Shown here piece after piece: positions 4,784-32,644 of a DNA stretch of 48,692 bases. The position numbers were made by a program, and so were the translations under genes. This DNA comes from a virus (Duplodnaviria > Heunggongvirae > Uroviricota > Caudoviricetes). The notes beneath the pieces are model-generated. The model did no database searches. It had not been told where the DNA came from and saw only the letters and a program-made list of their open reading frames with translations. The DNA is taken from IMG/VR virus record IMGVR_UViG_2654588006_000004, one strand, 5' to 3'. The number at the start of each line of letters is the position of its first letter. The stretch's first letter is position 1.

Positions 4784-7700
4784 TCAGCTGATACTGATGC
4801 CTGCGGTGGCTTTCTTCATCACCACAACCAGCAAATCGCTGATACTTGCTGTGGGATACCAGTCATTTACCAGCCATGCTGACACCGAAAACTCCAGCGT
4901 CATGTGGCCGTGACCAGCTGGCATATCAATAACACCACTGTAAATCAGCGTATTATCCAGCGCGGTACGGTTATAAATTTCAGCACCATTTTTCTTCACT
5001 ATCAGGCGGCATGAGGAGTAAATATCAGTATGCTCTCTCTCATGTTTAGCACCGCTGAATGCCACCGCCGGAATAACAATCTGCCGGTCAAACGGCTGAT
5101 CGTCATAAATCCTGACGGTAATGGTCCCTGATGGCCACCGCTCCGGTGCCCGGGAGTCCCGCGGGAAAGCCTTACCCACTGTTTTGACAATATCGCCTTC
5201 AATCTGGTTGGCTGACAGTTTCCCTTTAATCTGACAGTTCTCATTTATCGTAACGTTGTTGAGCGTCCCGGCGTTCGCATTCACACTGCCACTGATATCT
5301 GCATTTTTAGCGGTCAGCTTTCCGTCCGGTGTCATGGAAAATGCAGGAGGATTACCGCCGCTGGTAATGGTGGGAGCCGTCAGATATTTCAGGAACACTT
5401 CATTCATGAATATCTGATCACCCTGACCAACAAACATCGGTTTTGTGTTGCCATTTGCAGGATTAATCATCGCAATCCTGTCTGCCGCCAGCAGCACCTG
5501 ACTCTGCATGCCGTCGGGGGTGTTCTCAATACCGACACCGATACCCGCAATATAAAGGCGTCCGTCCTGCATCTGCTGCAGCTTCACAGCCCACATGCTG
5601 TTCAGGTTATTATTTGTATCAACCTGAACCTTCTGTATCTGCTGAATTGCCGCACTCTGGTCTTCCAGTTTCTTATTGACGGTCTGCGTGATTTCATTGC
5701 TGACATCCGTAATGGACGTCCTGATTTCAGCCAGGTCAGGCGCAAGCTGACCGTTATCAATCTGCGTCCACAGCTCCTGAGCCAGATGGGTTTTCCCTAT
5801 CTCGCCTTTGAAAAAATCCAGATAACCGGATGCATCATCACTCGGCTGACCAACAGCCTCCACGAATGCCGATTTGCCAACGGTGTTCACACTGCGGATA
5901 TAAAAGTAATAATCATGGCCCGGTTTGATATTGATACTGGCGGCTATCCAGTACAGCGCCGTGCCAAGATAGCGTGCTGTGGTTTCAACCTGCCTGATAT
6001 CCGCAATCCGCTTTTCCGAGAACCAGAACTCAAACTGTACCGTCGGATCATAAACCGCAAGATGCGGCGTGGCGGTTATCTGAAAATAGCCCGGCGTCAG
6101 CTCAATCCGCGACGGCGCTGCCGGTGCGGCAATCCGGAACGATACCGACGCCGGATCGCCCTGCTGCCCCCACGCATTTACTGCCCGGACTGTCAGCCTG
6201 TAGTTCCCCAGCGCCAGTTGTGTGAAGCGGTAAGTGGTTTCCGTCGTCCGGGCCGTGCTGACCAGCCGCTCACTGCCGTCATCCGCTGTTACGGTCAGAC
6301 GGAGCAGGAAGCTCACGCCCTTCACCACCTTCGGCGTGTCCCAGCGCGCCAGCACCTGATATTCCCCGCTGTCTGCGGTGACTTCGGCAGTCAGGTGCTG
6401 CACCGCTGGCGGCGTGACACCATTCACCGTGCCGCTCTGGTCGCCGTCAAAGTGCGCCCCGTTATCCACGATGGCCTCTTTTTCCGGTACATGCTGCACG
6501 GCGGTGATGGCATACGTGCCGTCGTCGTTCTCACGGATACTCACGCAGCGGAACAGGCGCTGGCGCAGCGTCGGCAGCTTCAGCCCCCACACGCTGTATT
6601 CAGCAACACCGTCAGGAACACGGCTCACTTTCACCTTCACGCCGTCGGTGACGGACTGGACCTCCACGCTGACCGGATTGCCACTTCCGTCAACCAGGCT
6701 TATCAGCGTGGTACCGGAGGATGGCAGCGTGATTTCACGGTCGAGCGTCAGCGTCCGGGTCTGGCTGTTCACCGCCAGCACGCGCCCGCCGGTGCTGATA
6801 CCGGCATAGTCATCATCGCAGATTTCAATGACATCGCCCGGTACATGGCGAAGCCCTTCAGCACCCACGCTGAAGTCCACGGTCTGCGTTTCCAGCAGCT
6901 CCGTTTTAATCAGCCACAGCCCGGCGCGGTGTGCCTGCCCCCGGCTGGTACAGCCAAAGGCATCCATCTTCGTGACGTTACGACCGTAACGGGCAATGGC
7001 CTGCGTATCCTCCACAAGCTCTGTCGCCGTCTCCCAGCCGTTGTTCGGGTCAATCCAGTTCACCTCAACGGCATTATGGCGGTCCTTCAGGGCGCTGAAG
7101 CTGTAGCGGAACGGCGCGCCATCATCCGGCATCACCACATTACTGCGGTTATAGGTCCACACCTTATCTGATGGTCGGTCCTGCACGAACGTCAGCGTCT
7201 GCCCGTTCCATACCGGCATACAGCGCATCGCCGAGCAGAAATCACTGAGAACATCCCACACCTTACGCTGTGTGGTCAGCCAGGCATTACAGGTGATGCG
7301 CGGCTCCGTGCCGCCAAAACCGTCCGGCACCGACTGGTCGCAACACTGGCCGATGACATACAGCGCCCATTTATCCACATCTGCCGCACCAAGACGTTTA
7401 CCCATGCCGTAGCGCGGGTGGGTCAGCATATCCCACAGACACCAGGCCATGTTGTTGCTGTATGCTGGCTTAAACGTTCCGTCCCAGATACCGCTGTATT
7501 GCCGCGTCTGCGGGTTATAGTTCGACGGCACCTGCAGAATGCGTCCGCGAAGATGATAATTACGGCTCACCTGCTGGCTGCCGAACTGCTCCGAGTCCAC
7601 CTGCACGCCGACCAGTGCCGTGTTCGGGTAGCACTGTTTCACATCGATGATTTCGGTGTATGACGACCAGAGCGTTTTGTTCTGCAGCTGGTCTGTGGTG

Positions 7701-24544: not shown

Positions 24545-25433
24545 TTGTCACCCCCATTGATATGCAGGGTGTCTTCTTCCTGTATTTTTCGTGAAGGATT
24601 TTTACTGCAGCGTTGTTCCAGGTGACCTGATGGTGAATGCGTTTATGGCTGGCACCCATCAGTGAAATTTTTACGCACGACGGCGCATACATGACGGAGT
24701 AAAAACTTTTAACGTAGGTTCCGGAATCCAGATACAGCTCGGTCATTCCGCCGCTGTTTTTCTGCGTCTGTTTCTGCCCTAACTGGACAGCACCGATCGT
24801 CATAAACAATTCACCACAGCGACCGAGATTCGTGTACGTATTCACATCCTCGTTAATGCGCCCCATGAATGAGAACGGTCGATCAACCGAACAGATAAAG
24901 CTGTTCATTGCCTTGCGTTTCACCCACGAAGCATGGCCGCCATTGTCACCAAGAAAATCCCCGCCCTGCGACATAGCGATGGAAAGCGCGGGTATTGATT
25001 CGTAATACGCCAGCATTTCAGAAAGGATCGCATCCAGTTTCCTTATCGGAAAATAGGCCTGGTCATAGTTGCGATCCACCCGAAACTGGAACTCGTGATA
25101 ATCATCATCGAGCTGAATGAAGTATTTACACCCGACCAGTTTTGCCAGGTCGAAACAGGCATTACGGGCGTAAAAAATTGAGCGGCGGTCACAGAAATTA
25201 TCGGCTTCGTCAAAACGACTGGCGATATCGGTTTTGGAAAACACCAGCACCTGTTCACCAAATTCAGCCATGTACTGATGCCGTGTCTTATCTTCATCAT
25301 CAACAACGATAAAAATTTTCCCGGTATAGCCAGCACGACGCAACGTTCGGTAAGTCAGAACTTTGTCCGGTCGCCCGTGAGTCAGAATAAAGGCGCAAAA
25401 ATCATCACGCATATTCCTCCTCCTCACCACCAT
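24480..25433 (-). CDS. Hypothetical protein with acidic DxD-type motifs (FIVVDDEDKT, QLDDDY); function unknown
   Basis: 317-aa ORF (likely start at 25412, MRDDF...) translationally coupled to the ParB-like gene upstream; motifs are suggestive of a nucleotide-dependent transferase fold but unverified. Confidence 0.45.
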   Translation of the reverse strand: MVVRRRNMRDDFCAFILTHGRPDKVLTYRTLRRAGYTGKIFIVVDDEDKTRHQYMAEFGEQVLVFSKTDIASRFDEADNFCDRRSIFYARNACFDLAKLVGCKYFIQLDDDYHEFQFRVDRNYDQAYFPIRKLDAILSEMLAYYESIPALSIAMSQGGDFLGDNGGHASWVKRKAMNSFICSVDRPFSFMGRINEDVNTYTNLGRCGELFMTIGAVQLGQKQTQKNSGGMTELYLDSGTYVKSFYSVMYAPSCVKISLMGASHKRIHHQVTWNNAAVKILHEKYRKKTPCISMGVTNDSVFESRVSGSVPDDCTTNR

Positions 25434-26196
25434 GCATGATCTCCACCATGCGCTGCGTCATCCGGACAAATCCATTTTCAATAGCCTGCTGATAATCAAT
25501 GATCACCAGCGCCGACTCCTCGAAAAAACACTGAATTTCAGCGGGGGCGTGAGCGTAATAGTCCGCAATTCTGCTGAAATTAAACACCGTGTGACGTTCT
25601 GCCGCACACAGGAGGAATTTCTCAATATCAGGCTCAAGGGAAGCCGAACGTATCCGGCTGATCAGCTCCTGCGTTTTCGTATCGTCGTACAGTTCACTGA
25701 TATCCGGTTTACCGCCCGACGGCTCATAAACAGGCGTATCAATTTTCGTCGTATACGGCTCCTCCTCATTTCCTGTACCGGGCAAAACATCCGTCAACAG
25801 TTCATCAATTTCTGTCGGGATGAAGCCTGTCAGGGAGACATCAAAATCAGCATTGATTAGGTCCGACAGCTCCATCCGCAACAGATCTTCATCCCAGCCA
25901 GCATTCATCGGCAGGCGATTATCTGCCAGGCGGTACGCCTTTTTCTGCTCATCCGTCAGGCCAGACAGAACAATGACCGGAACAGAATCCATTTTGAGCA
26001 TTTCAGCCGCCATAACACGACCGTGACCCGCAATAATTTCGCCCTTTTCGTCAATCAGCACCGGATTAGTCCAGCCGAATTGCTTAATACTTTCTACCAG
26101 TTGTGCCACCTGCTCAGGGCTGTGCGTCCTGGCGTTGTGCGCATACGGTGACAATTCTTGTAATGGGCGATAGACTATCTTTAATTTCTCGCTCAT
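25405..26196 (-). CDS. ParB-like nuclease domain protein
   Basis: 263 aa; N-terminal region PYAHNARTH...VLIDEKGEIIAGHGRVMAA fits the ParB/Srx-like N-terminal domain pattern. Confidence 0.7.
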   Translation of the reverse strand: MSEKLKIVYRPLQELSPYAHNARTHSPEQVAQLVESIKQFGWTNPVLIDEKGEIIAGHGRVMAAEMLKMDSVPVIVLSGLTDEQKKAYRLADNRLPMNAGWDEDLLRMELSDLINADFDVSLTGFIPTEIDELLTDVLPGTGNEEEPYTTKIDTPVYEPSGGKPDISELYDDTKTQELISRIRSASLEPDIEKFLLCAAERHTVFNFSRIADYYAHAPAEIQCFFEESALVIIDYQQAIENGFVRMTQRMVEIMHGGEEEEYA

Positions 26197-26333: not shown

Positions 26334-27791
26334 TTAGGAGCGCCAAAAAAAACCTGAAAACAATATAATAACAGGATAAATTTCAAGGCGACCAAGAATC
26401 ATAGCTATGCACATTAAATATTTTGCAATGTCATTAAGCACTCCGAATGACGATGCAGTAGCCCCAAAACCTAATCCCATATTATTAATACATGCAGCCA
26501 CTGTTGCAAATGATGTAAGAAAATCATATCCCATACCATTTAACACCAGTATAAAAAACACCGTGAAGAGAGTATAAAGAAAAAAGAAACTCCATACAGA
26601 CCTCATTACACGATCTGTAACTATCTTCCCTCCTACATTTACACTCAACAACGCTCTGGGATGAGAAAGCTGATTTATCTCGTGTTTGCTTTGTTTGAAA
26701 AGTATAAGAAATCGAAGTGACTTAATTCCACCACAAGTTGAACCTATACATCCCCCAAAGAAACTTGACAACAGCAAAAACACTATCGTGTGCGTGGGCC
26801 AGCTTGCATAATCCTGCGTAGCTAAACCATTATCAGTGAGCATGGAGCTGGCAAGAAAAAACGAATGAATAAAACTTCCATGCAAGTCATACATACCTAT
26901 ATGCCAGACCTGGAAAGAGGTAACAATGATCACCCCTAAGGCTATTAACAGAAAGAAACGAAGTTCAATATCTCTGATTAAAGGTTTTATCGTTTTCCTG
27001 CTAATAACAATATACCAAAGAGTGAAGTTGAAAGCCGATAGCAGGGAAAAAGAACCAGCCACCAGCTCAACCAAATAGTTATTAAAATATCCGATACTCT
27101 CGCTATGAGTTGAGAAACCACCAAGCGAAACTGTGGAAATCCCGTGACAAATAGCATCAAACAAAGGCATTCCTGCAAGTCTATAACAGACAATACAAGC
27201 AATACCTAATAAAGAATAAGTTATCCACAGTGTCCGTGACGTATCGGCCAGGCGGGGAGTGAGTTTGTCATCCTTAAATGGCCCCGGCATTTCTGACTGA
27301 TAAAGCTTTGCACCACCAATACCCAATAATGGCAATACAGCAACCGCCAGAACAATAACTCCTAAACCACCTATAAAATTTAACTGTGACCGATAGTACA
27401 AATATGCCCGAGGTAATGAACTAACATCATCAATTACAGTTGCTCCTGTTGTTGTTATTCCAGAAACCCCTTCAAACAGAGCATCAATGAACGTTAAATT
27501 AAGTTCTGAGTCAATCCATAAAGGGAATGCACTAATAACAGAAAACAAAATCCAAAACATTACAATTATAATAAACCCATCACGGGTACGTAATTGAATG
27601 CCAGATTTCTTAGTTGTATACCACGCTCCGCCACCAATGCAAAAAAATATAACGAAAGTTATAAAGAAAACGAACAGGCTTTTTTCTTTATAAAACAATG
27701 CTACAACCATTGGTGGCAACATTGAAAGACTATAGAGCCAAACCAGGAACCCACACATATGAGTAACAACTCTTACATGAGATGTATTCAT
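26334..27791 (-). CDS. trkG: Potassium uptake protein TrkG (TrkH family)
   Basis: Polytopic membrane protein whose sequence from MNTSHVRVVTHMCGF... matches the recalled K-12 TrkG (485 aa). The track start at 27809 is a TTG; the ATG at 27791 is more likely. AT-rich gene. Confidence 0.9.
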   Translation of the reverse strand: MNTSHVRVVTHMCGFLVWLYSLSMLPPMVVALFYKEKSLFVFFITFVIFFCIGGGAWYTTKKSGIQLRTRDGFIIIVMFWILFSVISAFPLWIDSELNLTFIDALFEGVSGITTTGATVIDDVSSLPRAYLYYRSQLNFIGGLGVIVLAVAVLPLLGIGGAKLYQSEMPGPFKDDKLTPRLADTSRTLWITYSLLGIACIVCYRLAGMPLFDAICHGISTVSLGGFSTHSESIGYFNNYLVELVAGSFSLLSAFNFTLWYIVISRKTIKPLIRDIELRFFLLIALGVIIVTSFQVWHIGMYDLHGSFIHSFFLASSMLTDNGLATQDYASWPTHTIVFLLLSSFFGGCIGSTCGGIKSLRFLILFKQSKHEINQLSHPRALLSVNVGGKIVTDRVMRSVWSFFFLYTLFTVFFILVLNGMGYDFLTSFATVAACINNMGLGFGATASSFGVLNDIAKYLMCIAMILGRLEIYPVIILFSGFFWRS

Positions 27792-27928
27792 ATCTAAATA
27801 TTCTTTCAATTATAACCACCTTGCTGCAATATTATGATTATACTGTATAAAATTTAACTCCTCTTAGATCTTACTTCACTGTTCCTTATGAAACAATCAT
27901 CAAAATGAATCATATTGTAGTTAAGATT

Positions 27929-28408
27929 TTACTTTAAACACTGTTCGGTTATGTATTGCTGAGCACCTTCAAGTTGGGCCTGCATCATTACCAGTCGTTC
28001 CCGGAGGGTGAAATAATCCCGTTCAGCGGTGTCTGCCAGTCGGGGGGAGGCTGCATTATCCACGCCGGAGGCGGTGGTGGCTTCACGCACTGACTGACAG
28101 ACTGCTTTGATGTGCAACCGACGACGACCAGCGGCAACATCATCACGCAGAGCATCATTTTCAGCTTTCGCATCAGCTAACTCCTTCGTGTATTTTGCAT
28201 CGAGCGCAGCAACATCACGCTGACGCATCTGCATGTCAGTAATTGCCGCGTTCGCCAGCTTCAGTTCTCTGGCATTTTTGTCGCGCTGCTCTTTGTAGGC
28301 GGTGGCGTTATCACGGTAATGATTAACAGCCCATGACAGGCAGACGATGATGCAGATAACCAGAGCATAAATAATCGCGGCGACTCTGCTCACTGATCTA
28401 TCCCCCAA
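27929..28408 (-). CDS. i-spanin Rz
   Basis: 159 aa; N-terminal TM helix then coiled coil; overlaps the endolysin 3' end; contains embedded Rz1. Confidence 0.8.
27988..28173 (-). CDS. o-spanin Rz1 (lipoprotein embedded in Rz, +1 frame)
   Basis: 61 aa; lipobox VVGC and Pro-rich core ([15 protein letters not shown]); wholly inside Rz in a different frame. Confidence 0.75.
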
Positions 28409-28923
28409 CAGGCTAATGCGCTTTCCTGGTCACGACGAATAACCTGTCCATAGCAGTTATTTGAACGTATGCGGCAATCGCGCCCACCATCTTTTATCCA
28501 CCAGCGAATCGCCTCGCATGCACCCTTACGATCACCGGCATTCAGCCGCTTATAAAACGTCGACGGGAAACACTTACCGGGGCCAATGTTATAGGGACAA
28601 AATGACGCTATACCCGCTTTCTGTGGTTCGGTCAGTGGTACTTTAATATTGCGCTCCACCCATGCCAGCGCCTTATCACGTTCAATAGCGTTAACCTGGT
28701 CGCATTTTTCCTTCGACAGCCTCATTCCCGGTATGACGGGCTTACCATCCACCATTGTGGCACCACGACAGATGGTCCATATACCGGAACCATCGCGGTA
28801 TGCCGTTGTGTGGTTACCTTCTTTTTCATCCAGAAACTGGTCGAGAATATCAGGCGCAGGCGCACCGACGGCAATCAGTGCCAGAACGGCAGCCGACAGG
28901 CCGTATCTGATTTTTGCGTTCAT
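28390..28923 (-). CDS. SAR endolysin (T4-lysozyme-like, phage 21 R21 type)
   Basis: 177 aa; N-terminal signal-anchor-release segment ([16 protein letters not shown]) and E...D...T catalytic spacing ([16 protein letters not shown]). Confidence 0.85.
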
Positions 28924-29028
28924 GGATATTTATCAGGATTTATCGGTTTCTGAACCCTGGATATGTTTATCTGTCCCGGCCTGTTGAATCAGGCAAGGAA
29001 TAGTTAAATACAATAGAGAGGATTATTT

Positions 29029-29301
29029 ATGGACAATAGCACCATTTCTCTACAGGAGTTGCTCGACTGCATTTCCAGGCTTCGGGATGATGTAAATGCC
29101 CTTACTGTCGCATTTTCATATCTGGCATTCTCAATTCCCAAGGAACAAATGCAACCAACACTGGCATCGCTCCAGCTTGAATCACTCAACCCCAAATGGT
29201 CCCAGCAACAACAAAATTCTTTCAAGTGGCTGGCGGTATTACTGGAAGAAAAATATGCTGGTGAAATTACCATTTCGGCGGAGTCTTCAGTGAACCAGTA
29301 A
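29029..29301 (+). CDS. Hypothetical acidic protein, opposite strand inside the lysis cassette
   Basis: 90 aa; strong RBS (GAGAGGATTATTTATG); convergent with and overlapping the 114-aa gene by 35 nt. Confidence 0.4.
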   Translation: MDNSTISLQELLDCISRLRDDVNALTVAFSYLAFSIPKEQMQPTLASLQLESLNPKWSQQQQNSFKWLAVLLEEKYAGEITISAESSVNQ

Positions 29302-29611
29302 TTCTTCCCGGCAGTTTTCCTTTGTAGGTTATCCACACACCCTGCGCCTCTAAAATTATGGGGCGCTTTTCCGGTGACTGCTCATCCCCTTCACATAACC
29401 CGGCAGCAACATCCAGGAAGACCTGTCTGATGCTCCTTCTGGCTGCTGCCTCATAAAACTCCAGCGCGGCACCTTCAACACGGTCCAGCGAGATGTCCAG
29501 GTCTAAAATTTCACCGTCAAAGCGTTTTTTGTCCCGTAACGCTAAAGTTACCGTAACTTTATTCTCAAAATTGCGGATCCCTTTCACAATCAGTTCATAG
29601 TTTTGAGTCAT
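29267..29611 (-). CDS. Hypothetical protein inserted between holin and endolysin
   Basis: 114 aa; GGGGAGAG SD; ATG 5 nt after the holin stop; no recognised family. Confidence 0.5.
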   Translation of the reverse strand: MTQNYELIVKGIRNFENKVTVTLALRDKKRFDGEILDLDISLDRVEGAALEFYEAAARRSIRQVFLDVAAGLCEGDEQSPEKRPIILEAQGVWITYKGKLPGRITGSLKTPPKW

Positions 29612-29615
29612 TGAA

Positions 29616-29831
29616 TTACTCTCCCCGTGCAGCCTTACGCTTATCTTCTTTAATCTTGAAATAAAGATTTGTCAGATACGTCAACAGGCCAAACACCAGA
29701 CTACCCAGCACACCTATTGCTGCCCACTGTGAGGGCGTGACTTTATCGAGCAACTGTAAAAACCAGTAGCCAGCACTGCCTGCGGAGGCGCCATAGGCAA
29801 TGCCTGTTGAAATTTTGTCCATGGATTTCAT
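29616..29831 (-). CDS. Class II holin / pinholin, phage 21 S21-like, with dual-start motif
   Basis: From [26 protein letters not shown]... (71 aa) the sequence closely matches the recalled S21; Met-Lys-Ser-Met dual start preserved; GGAGGTGAGG SD upstream of 29831. Confidence 0.8.
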
Positions 29832-30082: not shown

Positions 30083-30478
30083 CTAACCTCGCATGTCAAA
30101 GCCAGATTTCTGAAAATCTCTGTAGACTTCCGGATTGTTGAAGGCCGGAAATTTGGCTTTATGAGCTGCGGACTTTATCGCTTCGCAATAGGCTTTATCA
30201 CCGTTACTGGTAGATATTTTTAACGCCGTGCCATCCTGAGAGAATTCCATATGCAACCTGCATTTTTTCCCTTTCCAATTATGCGGCTCATCAAGTTTGG
30301 CATTAATTGCAGCTCTTATTCCCCGCGCTTGCGCCCCCCATTCATCCTGATCATCCCAGCGTCCTGAACTGCAACTACCTGTAGCAGTAGTTTTGTGGCA
30401 ATCTGAAGGGTGTAAAGGTGTGCATCCCGCAACAAAACCGACCCAAAAAGTCAACATAACGATTTTCTTTAATCCCAC
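30083..30478 (-). CDS. Lipoprotein with TolA-domain-III-like C-terminal domain (paralogue 2)
   Basis: 131 aa; lipobox VAGC; C-terminus KCRLHMEFSQDGTALKI...NPEVYRDFQ parallels the 142-aa neighbour. Confidence 0.6.
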   Translation of the reverse strand: MGLKKIVMLTFWVGFVAGCTPLHPSDCHKTTATGSCSSGRWDDQDEWGAQARGIRAAINAKLDEPHNWKGKKCRLHMEFSQDGTALKISTSNGDKAYCEAIKSAAHKAKFPAFNNPEVYRDFQKSGFDMRG

Positions 30479-30628: not shown

Positions 30629-31057
30629 TCAGGGTTTAAAATCCAGCACCCCATTTTGAAATACTTTATATACTTCCGGCGAAGGGGGGGCAGGTATATC
30701 AGCATTCTTTATCGCATTCATCGCTTCACGACATAAATCGAGGTCTCCACTTTCTCTTTTAACCTCCAGTAGAAGGCCATTCGGGGCCATATGCATTCTC
30801 AGTGTACACTCTTTTCCTGAATACTTACTCGCATCCCCGAACTGTTTTTCGATGGCGCTCTTGATTTGATGGGCATACAGACGGATATCCTCACTAACAT
30901 CAGAAGTACGTTCAGATGAACTCACATACTGTGTCTCTATTGCTTTATCGGAGTAATATGATGTACGGTCATGATAATTTGTCGATACAGCATCAGTGCA
31001 CCCGATAATAATCCCACTAATAATCAACGTAAGAATTGATGCGCTACGAAAACCCAT
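30629..31057 (-). CDS. Lipoprotein with TolA-domain-III-like C-terminal domain (paralogue 1)
   Basis: 142 aa; lipobox IIGC; C-terminal ~85 aa align closely with the recalled E. coli TolA C-terminus (QIKSAIE...CTLR...LAPDG.LL..K.E.GD..LC...PSP.VY.VF.N..LDFKP). Confidence 0.7.
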   Translation of the reverse strand: MGFRSASILTLIISGIIIGCTDAVSTNYHDRTSYYSDKAIETQYVSSSERTSDVSEDIRLYAHQIKSAIEKQFGDASKYSGKECTLRMHMAPNGLLLEVKRESGDLDLCREAMNAIKNADIPAPPSPEVYKVFQNGVLDFKP

Positions 31058-31645
31058 TTTTCCTCACATATGTCATATAGTAAAGGATTATATATACCGT
31101 TGTTTTGGACGCTCAAACAGCGAATCAGATCAAATAAAACGCACATTTGTTAACATTTACACAAAGTCTGCGTGGGATATTCTGAAAGAAGATCCATAAT
31201 GTGGAGAGAATCTATTGAAGTGCATGGTGCCGGGTGCCTCCCGGTGAACAAAATGTTCGTGATACCTGTCGGCGACAGAAAAGGTTAATGGTATCACCCC
31301 ACCGCACAGGGGGATTCACCATGCAGGAGTTTTCTTAGCAAACTCACTGCGCGCCCGGCAACTCCCAACCACATAAAATGCGGAGTTTGTGGCATTTATG
31401 CATATAACTCGCAGGAATTAACTTAAAAAACTGATGTCGATCCGGATTAAAAAGAAGCAGGTCATCATCAGATGACTGGAAAAAAGGAAAACAAAAAATA
31501 CTCATCATACCGTTTTGATTGCAGGGATGAGCCTGCTATGCACAATATGCAGAATATAAGCAAGATAAAAATATGCAGGCATATTATTTCGGATTTTGTT
31601 ATTAACACAACCTTTTTAATAATCATTTGGCATACAATAAACCAG

Positions 31646-32101: not shown

Positions 32102-32644
32102 TCAAGCCATTTTCTCAGCAAATGATTCACGCATGGGAATATATAGGGCATACTCAGCAACAGCTAACCAATTAGCAATCCGTTTTTCGCATGTGCTAAA
32201 ACACCACTCTGGGTGTGCATCATTTAGCAGTTCAGCCATTTTGCGCTTAGTCATCCCCCGCCCTTCATAGCGTTGCCGGAGAATGCAAATCAATCCTGGA
32301 TGCTCTGCCAGCACCTCACTTATGACTCGATCAATACATAACGCCTCTGCATCAGTACAATGCGCCAGCCAGCTCTTTTGCTTGCCGTTGATCATCTCTC
32401 GCAAAAACGCTTCCAGCTCAGCTTTCTCTATTCCCGCTTTTTTCATTCTGCGCAGGGCTTCATTAATGGCTGTTTTCGTCAGTTTTTTGGATGCCAACAA
32501 CTGATTGAACATATTCCCTGACCTGCCACCGCCAATATACGACCAGCGCCCCCACATACGTAGTTTTCCCTGAATCCAGACACTTTCCAGCGTGGTGAGG
32601 CGAAGGTGTTCTCCGCTTTTTCCTGTATTCGTTGGGTAAATCAT
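32102..32644 (-). CDS. Late-gene antiterminator Q-like protein
   Basis: 180 aa; LRMWGRW motif resembles the LERWGAW of phage-82-type Q; Cys pairs (CTDAEALC, CFSTC); immediately upstream of a terminator and the late region. Confidence 0.5.
   Translation of the reverse strand: MIYPTNTGKSGEHLRLTTLESVWIQGKLRMWGRWSYIGGGRSGNMFNQLLASKKLTKTAINEALRRMKKAGIEKAELEAFLREMINGKQKSWLAHCTDAEALCIDRVISEVLAEHPGLICILRQRYEGRGMTKRKMAELLNDAHPEWCFSTCEKRIANWLAVAEYALYIPMRESFAEKMA

Follow-up and report, generated by a model that had tools for sequence, protein, structure and literature searches.

Two genes between the holin and the endolysin of a Rac-type lambdoid prophage: a candidate moron-like module

Phage 21 carries a lysis cassette in which a pinholin is combined with a signal-anchor-release (SAR) endolysin, and the S21-R21-Rz cassette of the Escherichia coli prophage DLP12 is of the same type. 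The cassette described here belongs to a virus of the class Caudoviricetes (IMG/VR record IMGVR_UViG_2654588006_000004), whose 48,692-nucleotide (nt) sequence, hereafter the window, is a complete Rac-type lambdoid prophage. With phage 21 and DLP12 it shares the holin family, the dual start of the holin gene, a SAR-like lysozyme with the E35/D44/T50 triad and the Rz/Rz1 pair. In DLP12, however, essD and rrrD abut, whereas in the window two genes lie between holin and lysozyme: ydfR on the same strand and, converging on it from the opposite strand, a 90-codon gene designated ORF90. The cryptic prophage Qin of E. coli K-12 (essQ-ydfR-rrrQ-rzpQ) resembles the window in that an S21-type holin gene is followed by a DUF1327 gene and then by a gene of the same lysozyme family. 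It differs in that it has no ORF90, its ydfR stop overlaps the rrrQ start, and its YdfR, of 103 amino acids (aa), diverges after about codon 68 and has no ITGSLKxPP tail.

Lambdoid morons such as bor of lambda (borD in DLP12) and lom are, like ORF90, small late-operon genes that are present in some relatives only, and bor also sits on the opposite strand beside the lysis genes, as borD does in DLP12. The GC content of ORF90 is slightly below that of its neighbours, by a small margin, and a putative terminator-like hairpin lies downstream. Unlike bor and lom, it has no detected promoter, overlaps its neighbour by 35 nt and lacks a signal peptide or lipobox; moreover, its phage copies are consistently paired with a convergent partner bearing a C-terminal motif, and it has relatives on Serratia chromosomes. 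Phage proteins that bind RNase E, such as Dip of phiKZ, are also among the closest known systems. Considered as a whole, the data presented below suggest, with middling confidence, that the holin-endolysin gap of this prophage holds an accessory, moron-like mobile module of two genes that stands outside the lysis machinery.

ydfR and ORF90 in the lysis cassette

The minus-strand gene ydfR (29267-29611, 114 aa) belongs to the YdfR/DUF1327 family (PF07041, E = 8e-42, 141.8 bits against a cut-off of 25 over residues 1-112; phrog_406, E = 2.5e-67) and is labelled 'YdfR family protein' in RefSeq. ORF90 lies on the plus strand at 29029-29301 (phrog_2411; PGAP annotation WP_000370551.1), and the two genes overlap at their 3' ends by the 35 nt from 29267 to 29301 (both strands). 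Upstream of ydfR is the gene of the S21-type class II (pin)holin (29616-29831, minus strand, 71 aa; PF04971, E = 9e-36), which has an MKSM dual start and is annotated as essD in genomes with 100% identity. Downstream, an AT-rich spacer (28924-29028) separates the start of ORF90 from that of the SAR-type lysozyme (28390-28923, minus strand, 177 aa; PF00959, E = 1.3e-24). The original prediction, made from the sequence alone, had described a holin-endolysin cassette interrupted by two genes, one of them antisense; its coordinates agree in every case with the open reading frame (ORF) list and the translations, and the interrupted layout is borne out. Between the holin stop and the ydfR ATG at 29611 there are only four bases (TTCA), so that the start lies 5 nt past the stop, and the ydfR Shine-Dalgarno sequence GGGGAGAG is placed within the 3' end of the holin gene. 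Because of this short spacer and the position of the Shine-Dalgarno sequence, translation of ydfR is probably coupled to that of the pinholin. ORF90 has a Shine-Dalgarno sequence of its own, AGAGAGGA, which ends 7 nt ahead of its ATG. Late transcription must cross ORF90 antisense, as had been anticipated: the downstream late genes are all on the minus strand, and a scan of that strand from holin to lysozyme found no terminator-like site. An Rfam search of 28900-29650 gave no match.

The adjacency of holin and endolysin that had been taken as typical of phage 21-type cassettes holds for some of them, as in the essD-rrrD pair of DLP12, but interruption by ydfR is ordinary, common and already annotated. 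The gene lies directly 3' of an S21-type holin gene in the lambdoid cassettes of the window, K-12 Qin, 689R5, BP-4795 and mEp460, the last three being phages with the order holin-ydfR-lysozyme, and DNA of its N-terminal domain was found in 3649 of 5426 complete E. coli genomes (about 67%), at 4904 places. Among phage records, 101 carry ydfR against 438 with an S21-type holin. Since essD and rrrD of DLP12 abut without an insert, the insert is dispensable for lysis.

ORF90 belongs to a segment that is either present or absent. Alignments with 689R5 and BP-4795 delimit 296 bp (28980-29275), made up of 49 nt of upstream sequence and the first 247 nt of ORF90, in place of which 689R5 has 23 unrelated bases. 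On the ydfR side, the left junction coincides with the end of YdfR codon 112 (...TPP), and the final two YdfR codons (KW) and the stop come from the 3' end of ORF90. ORF90 was found in 1220 of the 5426 genomes (about 22%), at 1353 places as against 4904 for ydfR, and it accompanies roughly a quarter of the ydfR copies. Its patchy presence and clean junctions are those of a moron, and its GC content of about 0.43 (0.426 over 28965-29276) differs slightly from the 0.478-0.521 of the adjoining genes. The isolated phage Chlobot carries ORF90, and the layout is therefore compatible with lytic growth.

An antisense ORF of 90 aa could by itself be a product of chance, as the window has 136 ORFs of at least 70 aa; conservation across diverged copies shows that it is not. 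Five such copies were compared, namely those of the window, of phages 783R2 and Stx2k, of the iha island and of a plasmid. The plus frame is free of stops in all five, with synonymous divergence (dS) of 1.0-1.4 and ratios of nonsynonymous to synonymous divergence (dN/dS) of 0.20-0.39, whereas the antisense frame that shares its wobble positions has one to three stops in four of the five. A 110-aa minus-strand ORF (29004-29336) covers ORF90 with a dN/dS of 0.1-0.3, below that of ORF90 itself; with stops in four of the five lineages, it was rejected as a gene and is regarded as a mirror-frame artefact. ORF90 matches phrog_2411 over its full length (positions 1-90 of 90, E = 3.1e-59), and the distant relatives P0189 and P0201 match the same family. 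Homologues with 30-40% identity are kept as ORFs of 81-106 aa across Enterobacterales, in several genomic contexts. Judged by these comparisons, ORF90 is a real gene. A shift into the +1 frame at about 29200-29215 (codons ~58-62, CAGCAACAACAAAA) gives several natural variants (94 aa; clusters P0046, P0050, P0051 and others) a different C-terminal third; they may be decaying copies or reflect a slippage-prone sequence.

Of the homology and structure searches that had been proposed for both proteins, the former identified ydfR (DUF1327) and phrog_2411, and the latter gave no fold match for either. The AlphaFold2 (AF2) model of ORF90 consists of four helices, with a predicted local distance difference test (pLDDT) score of 72. 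Pfam, NCBIfam and PADLOC gave no match for ORF90, a search of PDB sequences returned nothing, and the best Foldseek hit of the model in PDB had E = 1.9. For YdfR, NCBIfam and PADLOC gave no match, a PDB sequence search returned nothing, and Foldseek of the AF2 model against BFVD found nothing at E <= 0.001. PADLOC-DB contained no family matching either protein at E up to 1, neither matched a toxin-antitoxin Pfam family, and neither gave a hit to a holin or membrane family. Both proteins look soluble in their models, with no membrane segment evident by inspection, and inspection of ORF90 revealed neither a signal peptide nor a lipobox. ORF90 is annotated only as 'hypothetical'. In the literature search, no paper mentioned ORF90 or phrog_2411, and none linked ydfR with the holin.

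YdfR of the window is divided into an N-terminal domain (codons 1-68; 29408-29611, minus strand), modelled by AF2 as beta-beta-beta-alpha, and a tail (codons 69-114). Alleles of the N-domain diverge deeply (dS up to more than 2, dN/dS about 0.2-0.4), whereas the tail is common to them (dS 0.03-0.23). K-12 YdfR is 64% identical to that of the window, and residues 1-68 are well conserved between them. Functional data on YdfR were found in a single source (PMC13232886, 2026), in which residues 1-72 of the K-12 protein bound RNase E 1-597 in bacterial two-hybrid (BACTH) and co-purification experiments, and Strep-tagged K-12 YdfR co-purified DNase-resistant nucleic acid. Codon 112 of YdfR is a mosaic junction, after which the protein may end in KW, ESQP, EF or LA, or continue into a 65-aa extension. 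The latter is found in the variants P0086 and P0090 (176 and 183 aa), common forms in E. coli and Shigella in which 65 more residues (TALRSEKDD...KSLQ) follow ...SLKTPP and the tail motif described below is therefore internal rather than C-terminal; P0086 alone occurs on 463 contigs. The extension was considered as a fused analogue of ORF90 and the idea was dropped (hhalign, E = 0.23).

Convergent partners and relatives of ORF90

Each ORF90 relative examined in a phage context faces a convergent, overlapping gene on the late strand. The product of that gene ends in the tail motif [IL][TF]G[SD][LI]xxPxxx-COOH, in which G (position -9) and P (position -4) keep a fixed register relative to the C-terminus. 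Four slots are represented: the E. coli lysis cassette, a Citrobacter position ahead of the holin, the gpM-gpL tail operon and a terminase-proximal site. In the window the motif covers I104-W114 of YdfR (ITGSLKTPPKW-COOH; 29270-29302, minus strand), shared with the partners in the other phages, and the 114-aa protein ends in RITGSLKTPPKW with the 35-nt overlap given above. The 238-aa partner of Citrobacter meridianamericanus, whose gene precedes those of a lambda-S-type holin and a CHAP endolysin, ends in KITGSLRVPMKL (overlap 14 nt), and the 63-aa partner of Citrobacter freundii in KITGSLRAPIKL (overlap 14 nt). In a lambda-like tail operon, a 71-aa partner encoded between gpM and gpL has the C-terminus QIFGDLKKPPSY (overlap 7 nt); a 62-aa partner near a terminase has RLTGDILIPLES (overlap 23 nt).

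The motif was sought in a six-frame translation of all fetched sequence (1.6 million residues), where it gave 106 matches, all in partner genes, against 0.05 expected; as the motif was defined after the sequences had been seen, this statistic is weaker than it appears. The conserved tail residues are encoded by different codons in different contexts, which indicates conservation at the level of the protein. In BLASTP, the 63-aa Citrobacter partner aligned with residues 88-114 of YdfR (E = 7e-4). At loci L015-L017 the ydfR N-domain is missing, and the tail codons for GKLPGRITGSL differ from those of the window only synonymously (L015, read by hand). The 114-aa partner and its 35-nt overlap were present in 76 of the 80 IMG/VR contigs that carry an E. 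coli-type ORF90; the other four are cut by contig ends or failed motif or ORF detection. Chromosomal homologues of ORF90 have no tail-motif partner. From these comparisons, phage genes of the ORF90 family look like travelling with a converging, tail-bearing partner, as a pair that fits different slots of the late operon. Two other interpretations were abandoned: the YdfR tail as unconstrained read-through into a moron terminator, once the motif proved to be conserved at the protein level, and the N-terminus of the 238-aa Citrobacter partner as a DUF1327 homologue, which is not claimed (E = 0.014, probability 3%).

In the prophage of C. meridianamericanus, the late-operon leader is a hot spot for cargo. 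Shortly upstream of its partner/ORF90 pair (locus L131, 4087-5847), a HicA/HicB-like pair was read from the translations, without a family-model score, and the same locus encodes a 300-aa ADP-ribosyltransferase resembling pertussis S1 and enterotoxin A (PF02917, E = 1.4e-10). In phage phiSTEC1575-Stx2k (L004, 1785-3803), what comes after the S21 holin, ydfR and ORF90 is a further pair of holin-like genes and one for an M15 metallopeptidase instead of the SAR lysozyme; the trio therefore moves as a block between endolysin types.

To explore the wider family, 1.84 billion representative proteins were searched with a profile, and a word search based on a profile came next. Relatives with 30-60% identity were found in Citrobacter, Serratia, Sodalis, Chania, Gibbsiella and others, and share the motif ELL..I..LR..VN.L.VAFSYLAF....E....I.AL.FES.N. 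In Serratia the homologue occupies a fixed chromosomal slot, pyrC-dinI-X-bssS-solA, and is carried by about 20 species representatives; a second chromosomal slot of the family is DUF1883-X-HxlR. Neither a gene of the family nor a remnant was found in the dinI-bssS spacer of K-12. Diverged E. coli copies lie beside iha (59 genomes) and on about 72 conjugative plasmids. In the iha-island copy ORF90 alone is intact and the reading frame of the partner is lost; this copy still has the hairpin and, in antisense, the first codons of the lysozyme gene, and therefore derives from a phage cassette. On the reading preferred below, phages have captured this family, which is chromosomal in Serratia and its relatives. 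In these bacteria (L026-L031, L043-L045) the homologue is flanked by dinI and bssS, and in L026 the dinI gene has a canonical LexA box. SOS control of ORF90 itself was considered and dropped, as the LexA-like box upstream of the S. proteamaculans homologue is not conserved in S. rubidaea and is missing from the window. The Serratia slot is only a few kb from rne, a curious proximity given the YdfR-RNase E report, which is probably just synteny.

Candidate expression signals and readings of the gene pair

A terminator-like hairpin, GCGCCTC-N9-GGGGCGC (29344-29366) followed by TTTTCC, lies on the plus strand at 29344-29372, within ydfR codons ~82-89, and begins 43 nt past the ORF90 stop. Folding of 29299-29385 as plus-strand RNA gave -24.3 kcal/mol (z = -2.6 relative to shuffled sequences), and the minus strand was weaker (z = -1.2). 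In the iha-island copy the stem is a perfect 9 bp (z = -2.7) while loop and flanks have diverged, and the stem is retained with different loops in mEp460 and in strain F11. The 9-nt loop and the 4-T tract place the hairpin outside the criteria of the terminator scan.

The two-gene module may work as follows. ORF90 would be expressed in the lysogen from a weak promoter of its own, with transcription ending at the hairpin at 29344-29372. Upon induction, Q-dependent late transcription would cross ORF90 antisense while making the tail-bearing partner, and this read-through would silence ORF90. ORF90 protein and the product of its partner gene would thus be made in opposite phases of the phage cycle. 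It may be only upon induction that they come together, with a possible interaction between the partner tail and the helical ORF90 protein. In a bolder form, which we regard as doubtful, ORF90-family proteins would be receptors for the free C-terminal tail of convergent partners and the pair a mobile two-phase switch. In the lysogen, the helical protein would then affect either the host or superinfecting phages, and the partner would bind or neutralise it at induction. The partner N-terminus would vary, being DUF1327 (an RNase E or RNA binder), a coiled coil or the 238-aa form, and the Serratia dinI-bssS homologue would be the ancestral host version of the target of the tail.

Several points weigh against a module of this kind, besides the late definition of the motif. 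About three quarters of the ydfR copies have the tail without ORF90, and ORF90 relatives have no partner on Serratia chromosomes, nor in the 59 genomes with the iha-island copy, nor on about 72 plasmids; because each gene is found without the other, functional dependence between them is not required. The partners at L022 and L036 showed no similarity to YdfR in BLASTP. A sigma-70 scan upstream of ORF90 found no site with a 16-18-nt spacer, and in the sole promoter candidate, TTGAAT-N19-TACAAT, the -10 element ends 14 nt ahead of the ATG, which would exclude the Shine-Dalgarno sequence from the transcript; as no credible sigma-70 promoter was found there, expression of ORF90 is putative. In BP-4795 and the Stx2k phage one position of the hairpin is mismatched, and the fold and family searches yielded nothing on the function of either protein. 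The RNase E data concern the 103-aa K-12 YdfR, whose tail differs from that of the window, and few transcripts were altered when that protein was overexpressed (PMC13232886).

Part of the same evidence could be explained by two independent passengers. ORF90 would then be a single-gene moron that landed beside ydfR, without any functional link between the products, and the tail would accompany it only because the recombination unit includes the 3' end of the partner. The solo occurrence of either gene, the mosaic junction at YdfR codon 112 with its several endings and the iha-island copy, which has kept ORF90 and the hairpin and lost the partner frame, are all in keeping with this explanation. 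Passive hitch-hiking of DNA would not, however, yield a motif whose residues are kept in four late-operon slots, through different codons and at a constant distance from the C-terminus, nor tail codons under purifying selection at L015, where the ydfR N-domain is gone. Independent passengers are thus rather unlikely. An antagonistic pair, either toxin and antidote or defence and self-immunity, comes closest to the 'regulatory or immunity module' of the original prediction: ORF90 protein made in the lysogen would be directed at the host or at incoming phages, and the late partner would neutralise it at induction by means of its C-terminal tail and antisense transcription. Such a pair would suit the convergent overlap in all phage contexts seen, the opposite transcriptional programmes of the two genes and the frequency of partners without ORF90, as expected of harmless antidotes. 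We nevertheless consider it unlikely, as PADLOC gave no match and toxicity is hard to reconcile with relatives that are stably kept without a partner in about 20 Serratia species as well as on plasmids and in the iha island. None of the tests gave evidence of a regulatory or immunity role. The idea of a module fares better in one respect, since phage-borne ORF90 relatives always face a tail-motif partner, and less well in another, since each gene also occurs alone. The solo occurrence leaves room for the simpler reading of independent passengers and argues against a strict toxin-antidote relation.

An accessory role in lysis timing, in which YdfR, ORF90 or both would modulate the pinholin or the SAR endolysin in an antiholin-like manner or through endolysin release, appears quite improbable. 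The pair does lie within or beside a lysis cassette in three of the four phage contexts, and ydfR seems translationally coupled to the holin. Neither protein, however, has an evident membrane segment in its sequence or AF2 model, and, to judge from the MKSM dual start, the holin gene itself already encodes the holin/antiholin pair. Moreover, S21-type cassettes work without the insert, as in DLP12 and in keeping with the excess of holin over ydfR records, the pair also occurs in a tail operon, and ORF90 relatives are found in non-phage loci. The original prediction was to fall if ORF90 proved to be unexpressed and the 114-aa protein a known lysis accessory, for example an antiholin; neither was found. 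Finally, ORF90 might be spurious and the segment a non-coding spacer, as could be argued from the missing Pfam or NCBIfam family, the lack of a promoter, the frameshifted natural copies and an equally low dN/dS in the antisense frame. This is extremely improbable in view of a plus frame that stays open in five lineages at dS above 1 while the antisense frame gains stops, and of distant homologues conserved in several contexts across Enterobacterales. The accessory two-gene module, held with the reservations listed above, is therefore the reading that we prefer.

Surroundings of the cassette and biological meaning

The complete minus-strand order is S21-type pinholin, ydfR, 343 nt without a minus-strand gene, SAR-type lysozyme, Rz/Rz1 and trkG. 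By reading of the sequence, the lysozyme has a G/A-rich, SAR-like N-terminal segment and the E35/D44/T50 triad. The Rz spanin gene (27929-28408, minus strand; PF03245, E = 9e-53) contains Rz1 at 27988-28173 according to the ORF list. With a dual-start holin of PF04971, a PF00959 lysozyme that has a weakly hydrophobic, G/A-rich N-terminus and the E-D-T triad, and nested Rz/Rz1 genes, the cassette is by its sequence of the S21 pinholin/SAR endolysin kind. As a result of the insertion, 343 untranslated bases (28924-29266, minus strand) extend from the ydfR stop to the lysozyme ATG, and the lysozyme gene has no recognisable Shine-Dalgarno sequence (...CCTGATAAATATCCATG). Translational coupling of ydfR to the lysozyme, indicated in K-12 Qin by the overlap of the ydfR stop with the rrrQ start, has been lost across this gap.

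The potassium transporter gene trkG (26334-27809, minus strand, GC 0.38) follows Rz directly on the late strand and precedes a ParB-N-like gene (25405-26196) and then the terminase genes, an arrangement by which the element is recognised as Rac-type. In an E. coli strain of the B lineage, a 99.3%-identical copy of the cassette adjoins sieB-kilR-racC-recET and trkG, and many E. coli chromosomes hold copies with 100% identity. Between a Q-like antiterminator gene (32102-32644) and the holin gene are two tandem lipoprotein-like ORFs on the minus strand (30083-30478 and 30629-31057, 131 and 142 aa), with N-termini reading ...VAGC and ...IIGC and a TolA C-terminal domain in each (PF06519, E = 1e-14 and 2e-23). 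They could be decoys of TolA domain III against colicins or Ff phages, or act in superinfection exclusion. In one genome with an identical lysis cassette, their slot is occupied by tRNA-Gly and tRNA-Thr. Upstream of the TolA-like genes, the small RNA family STnc100 (RF02076) has a full-length match at 31168-31354 on the minus strand (83 bits, gathering score 47; E = 2e-17).

The S21/SAR cassette is a textbook system, and the understanding of lysis itself is unchanged by these results. Yet about two thirds of complete E. coli genomes hold an unexplained ydfR within it, and about one fifth, including that of the B-lineage strain NEBExpress, hold the antisense ORF90 too. As far as our searches reach, the convergent pairing with a fixed C-terminal motif has no prior description. 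It yields a testable hypothesis for two widespread genes, namely binding between the tail and the helical protein and expression in opposite phases, and may connect with the reported binding of YdfR to RNase E. ORF90 emerges as a conserved enterobacterial small protein that phages move together with a partner bearing a fixed motif.

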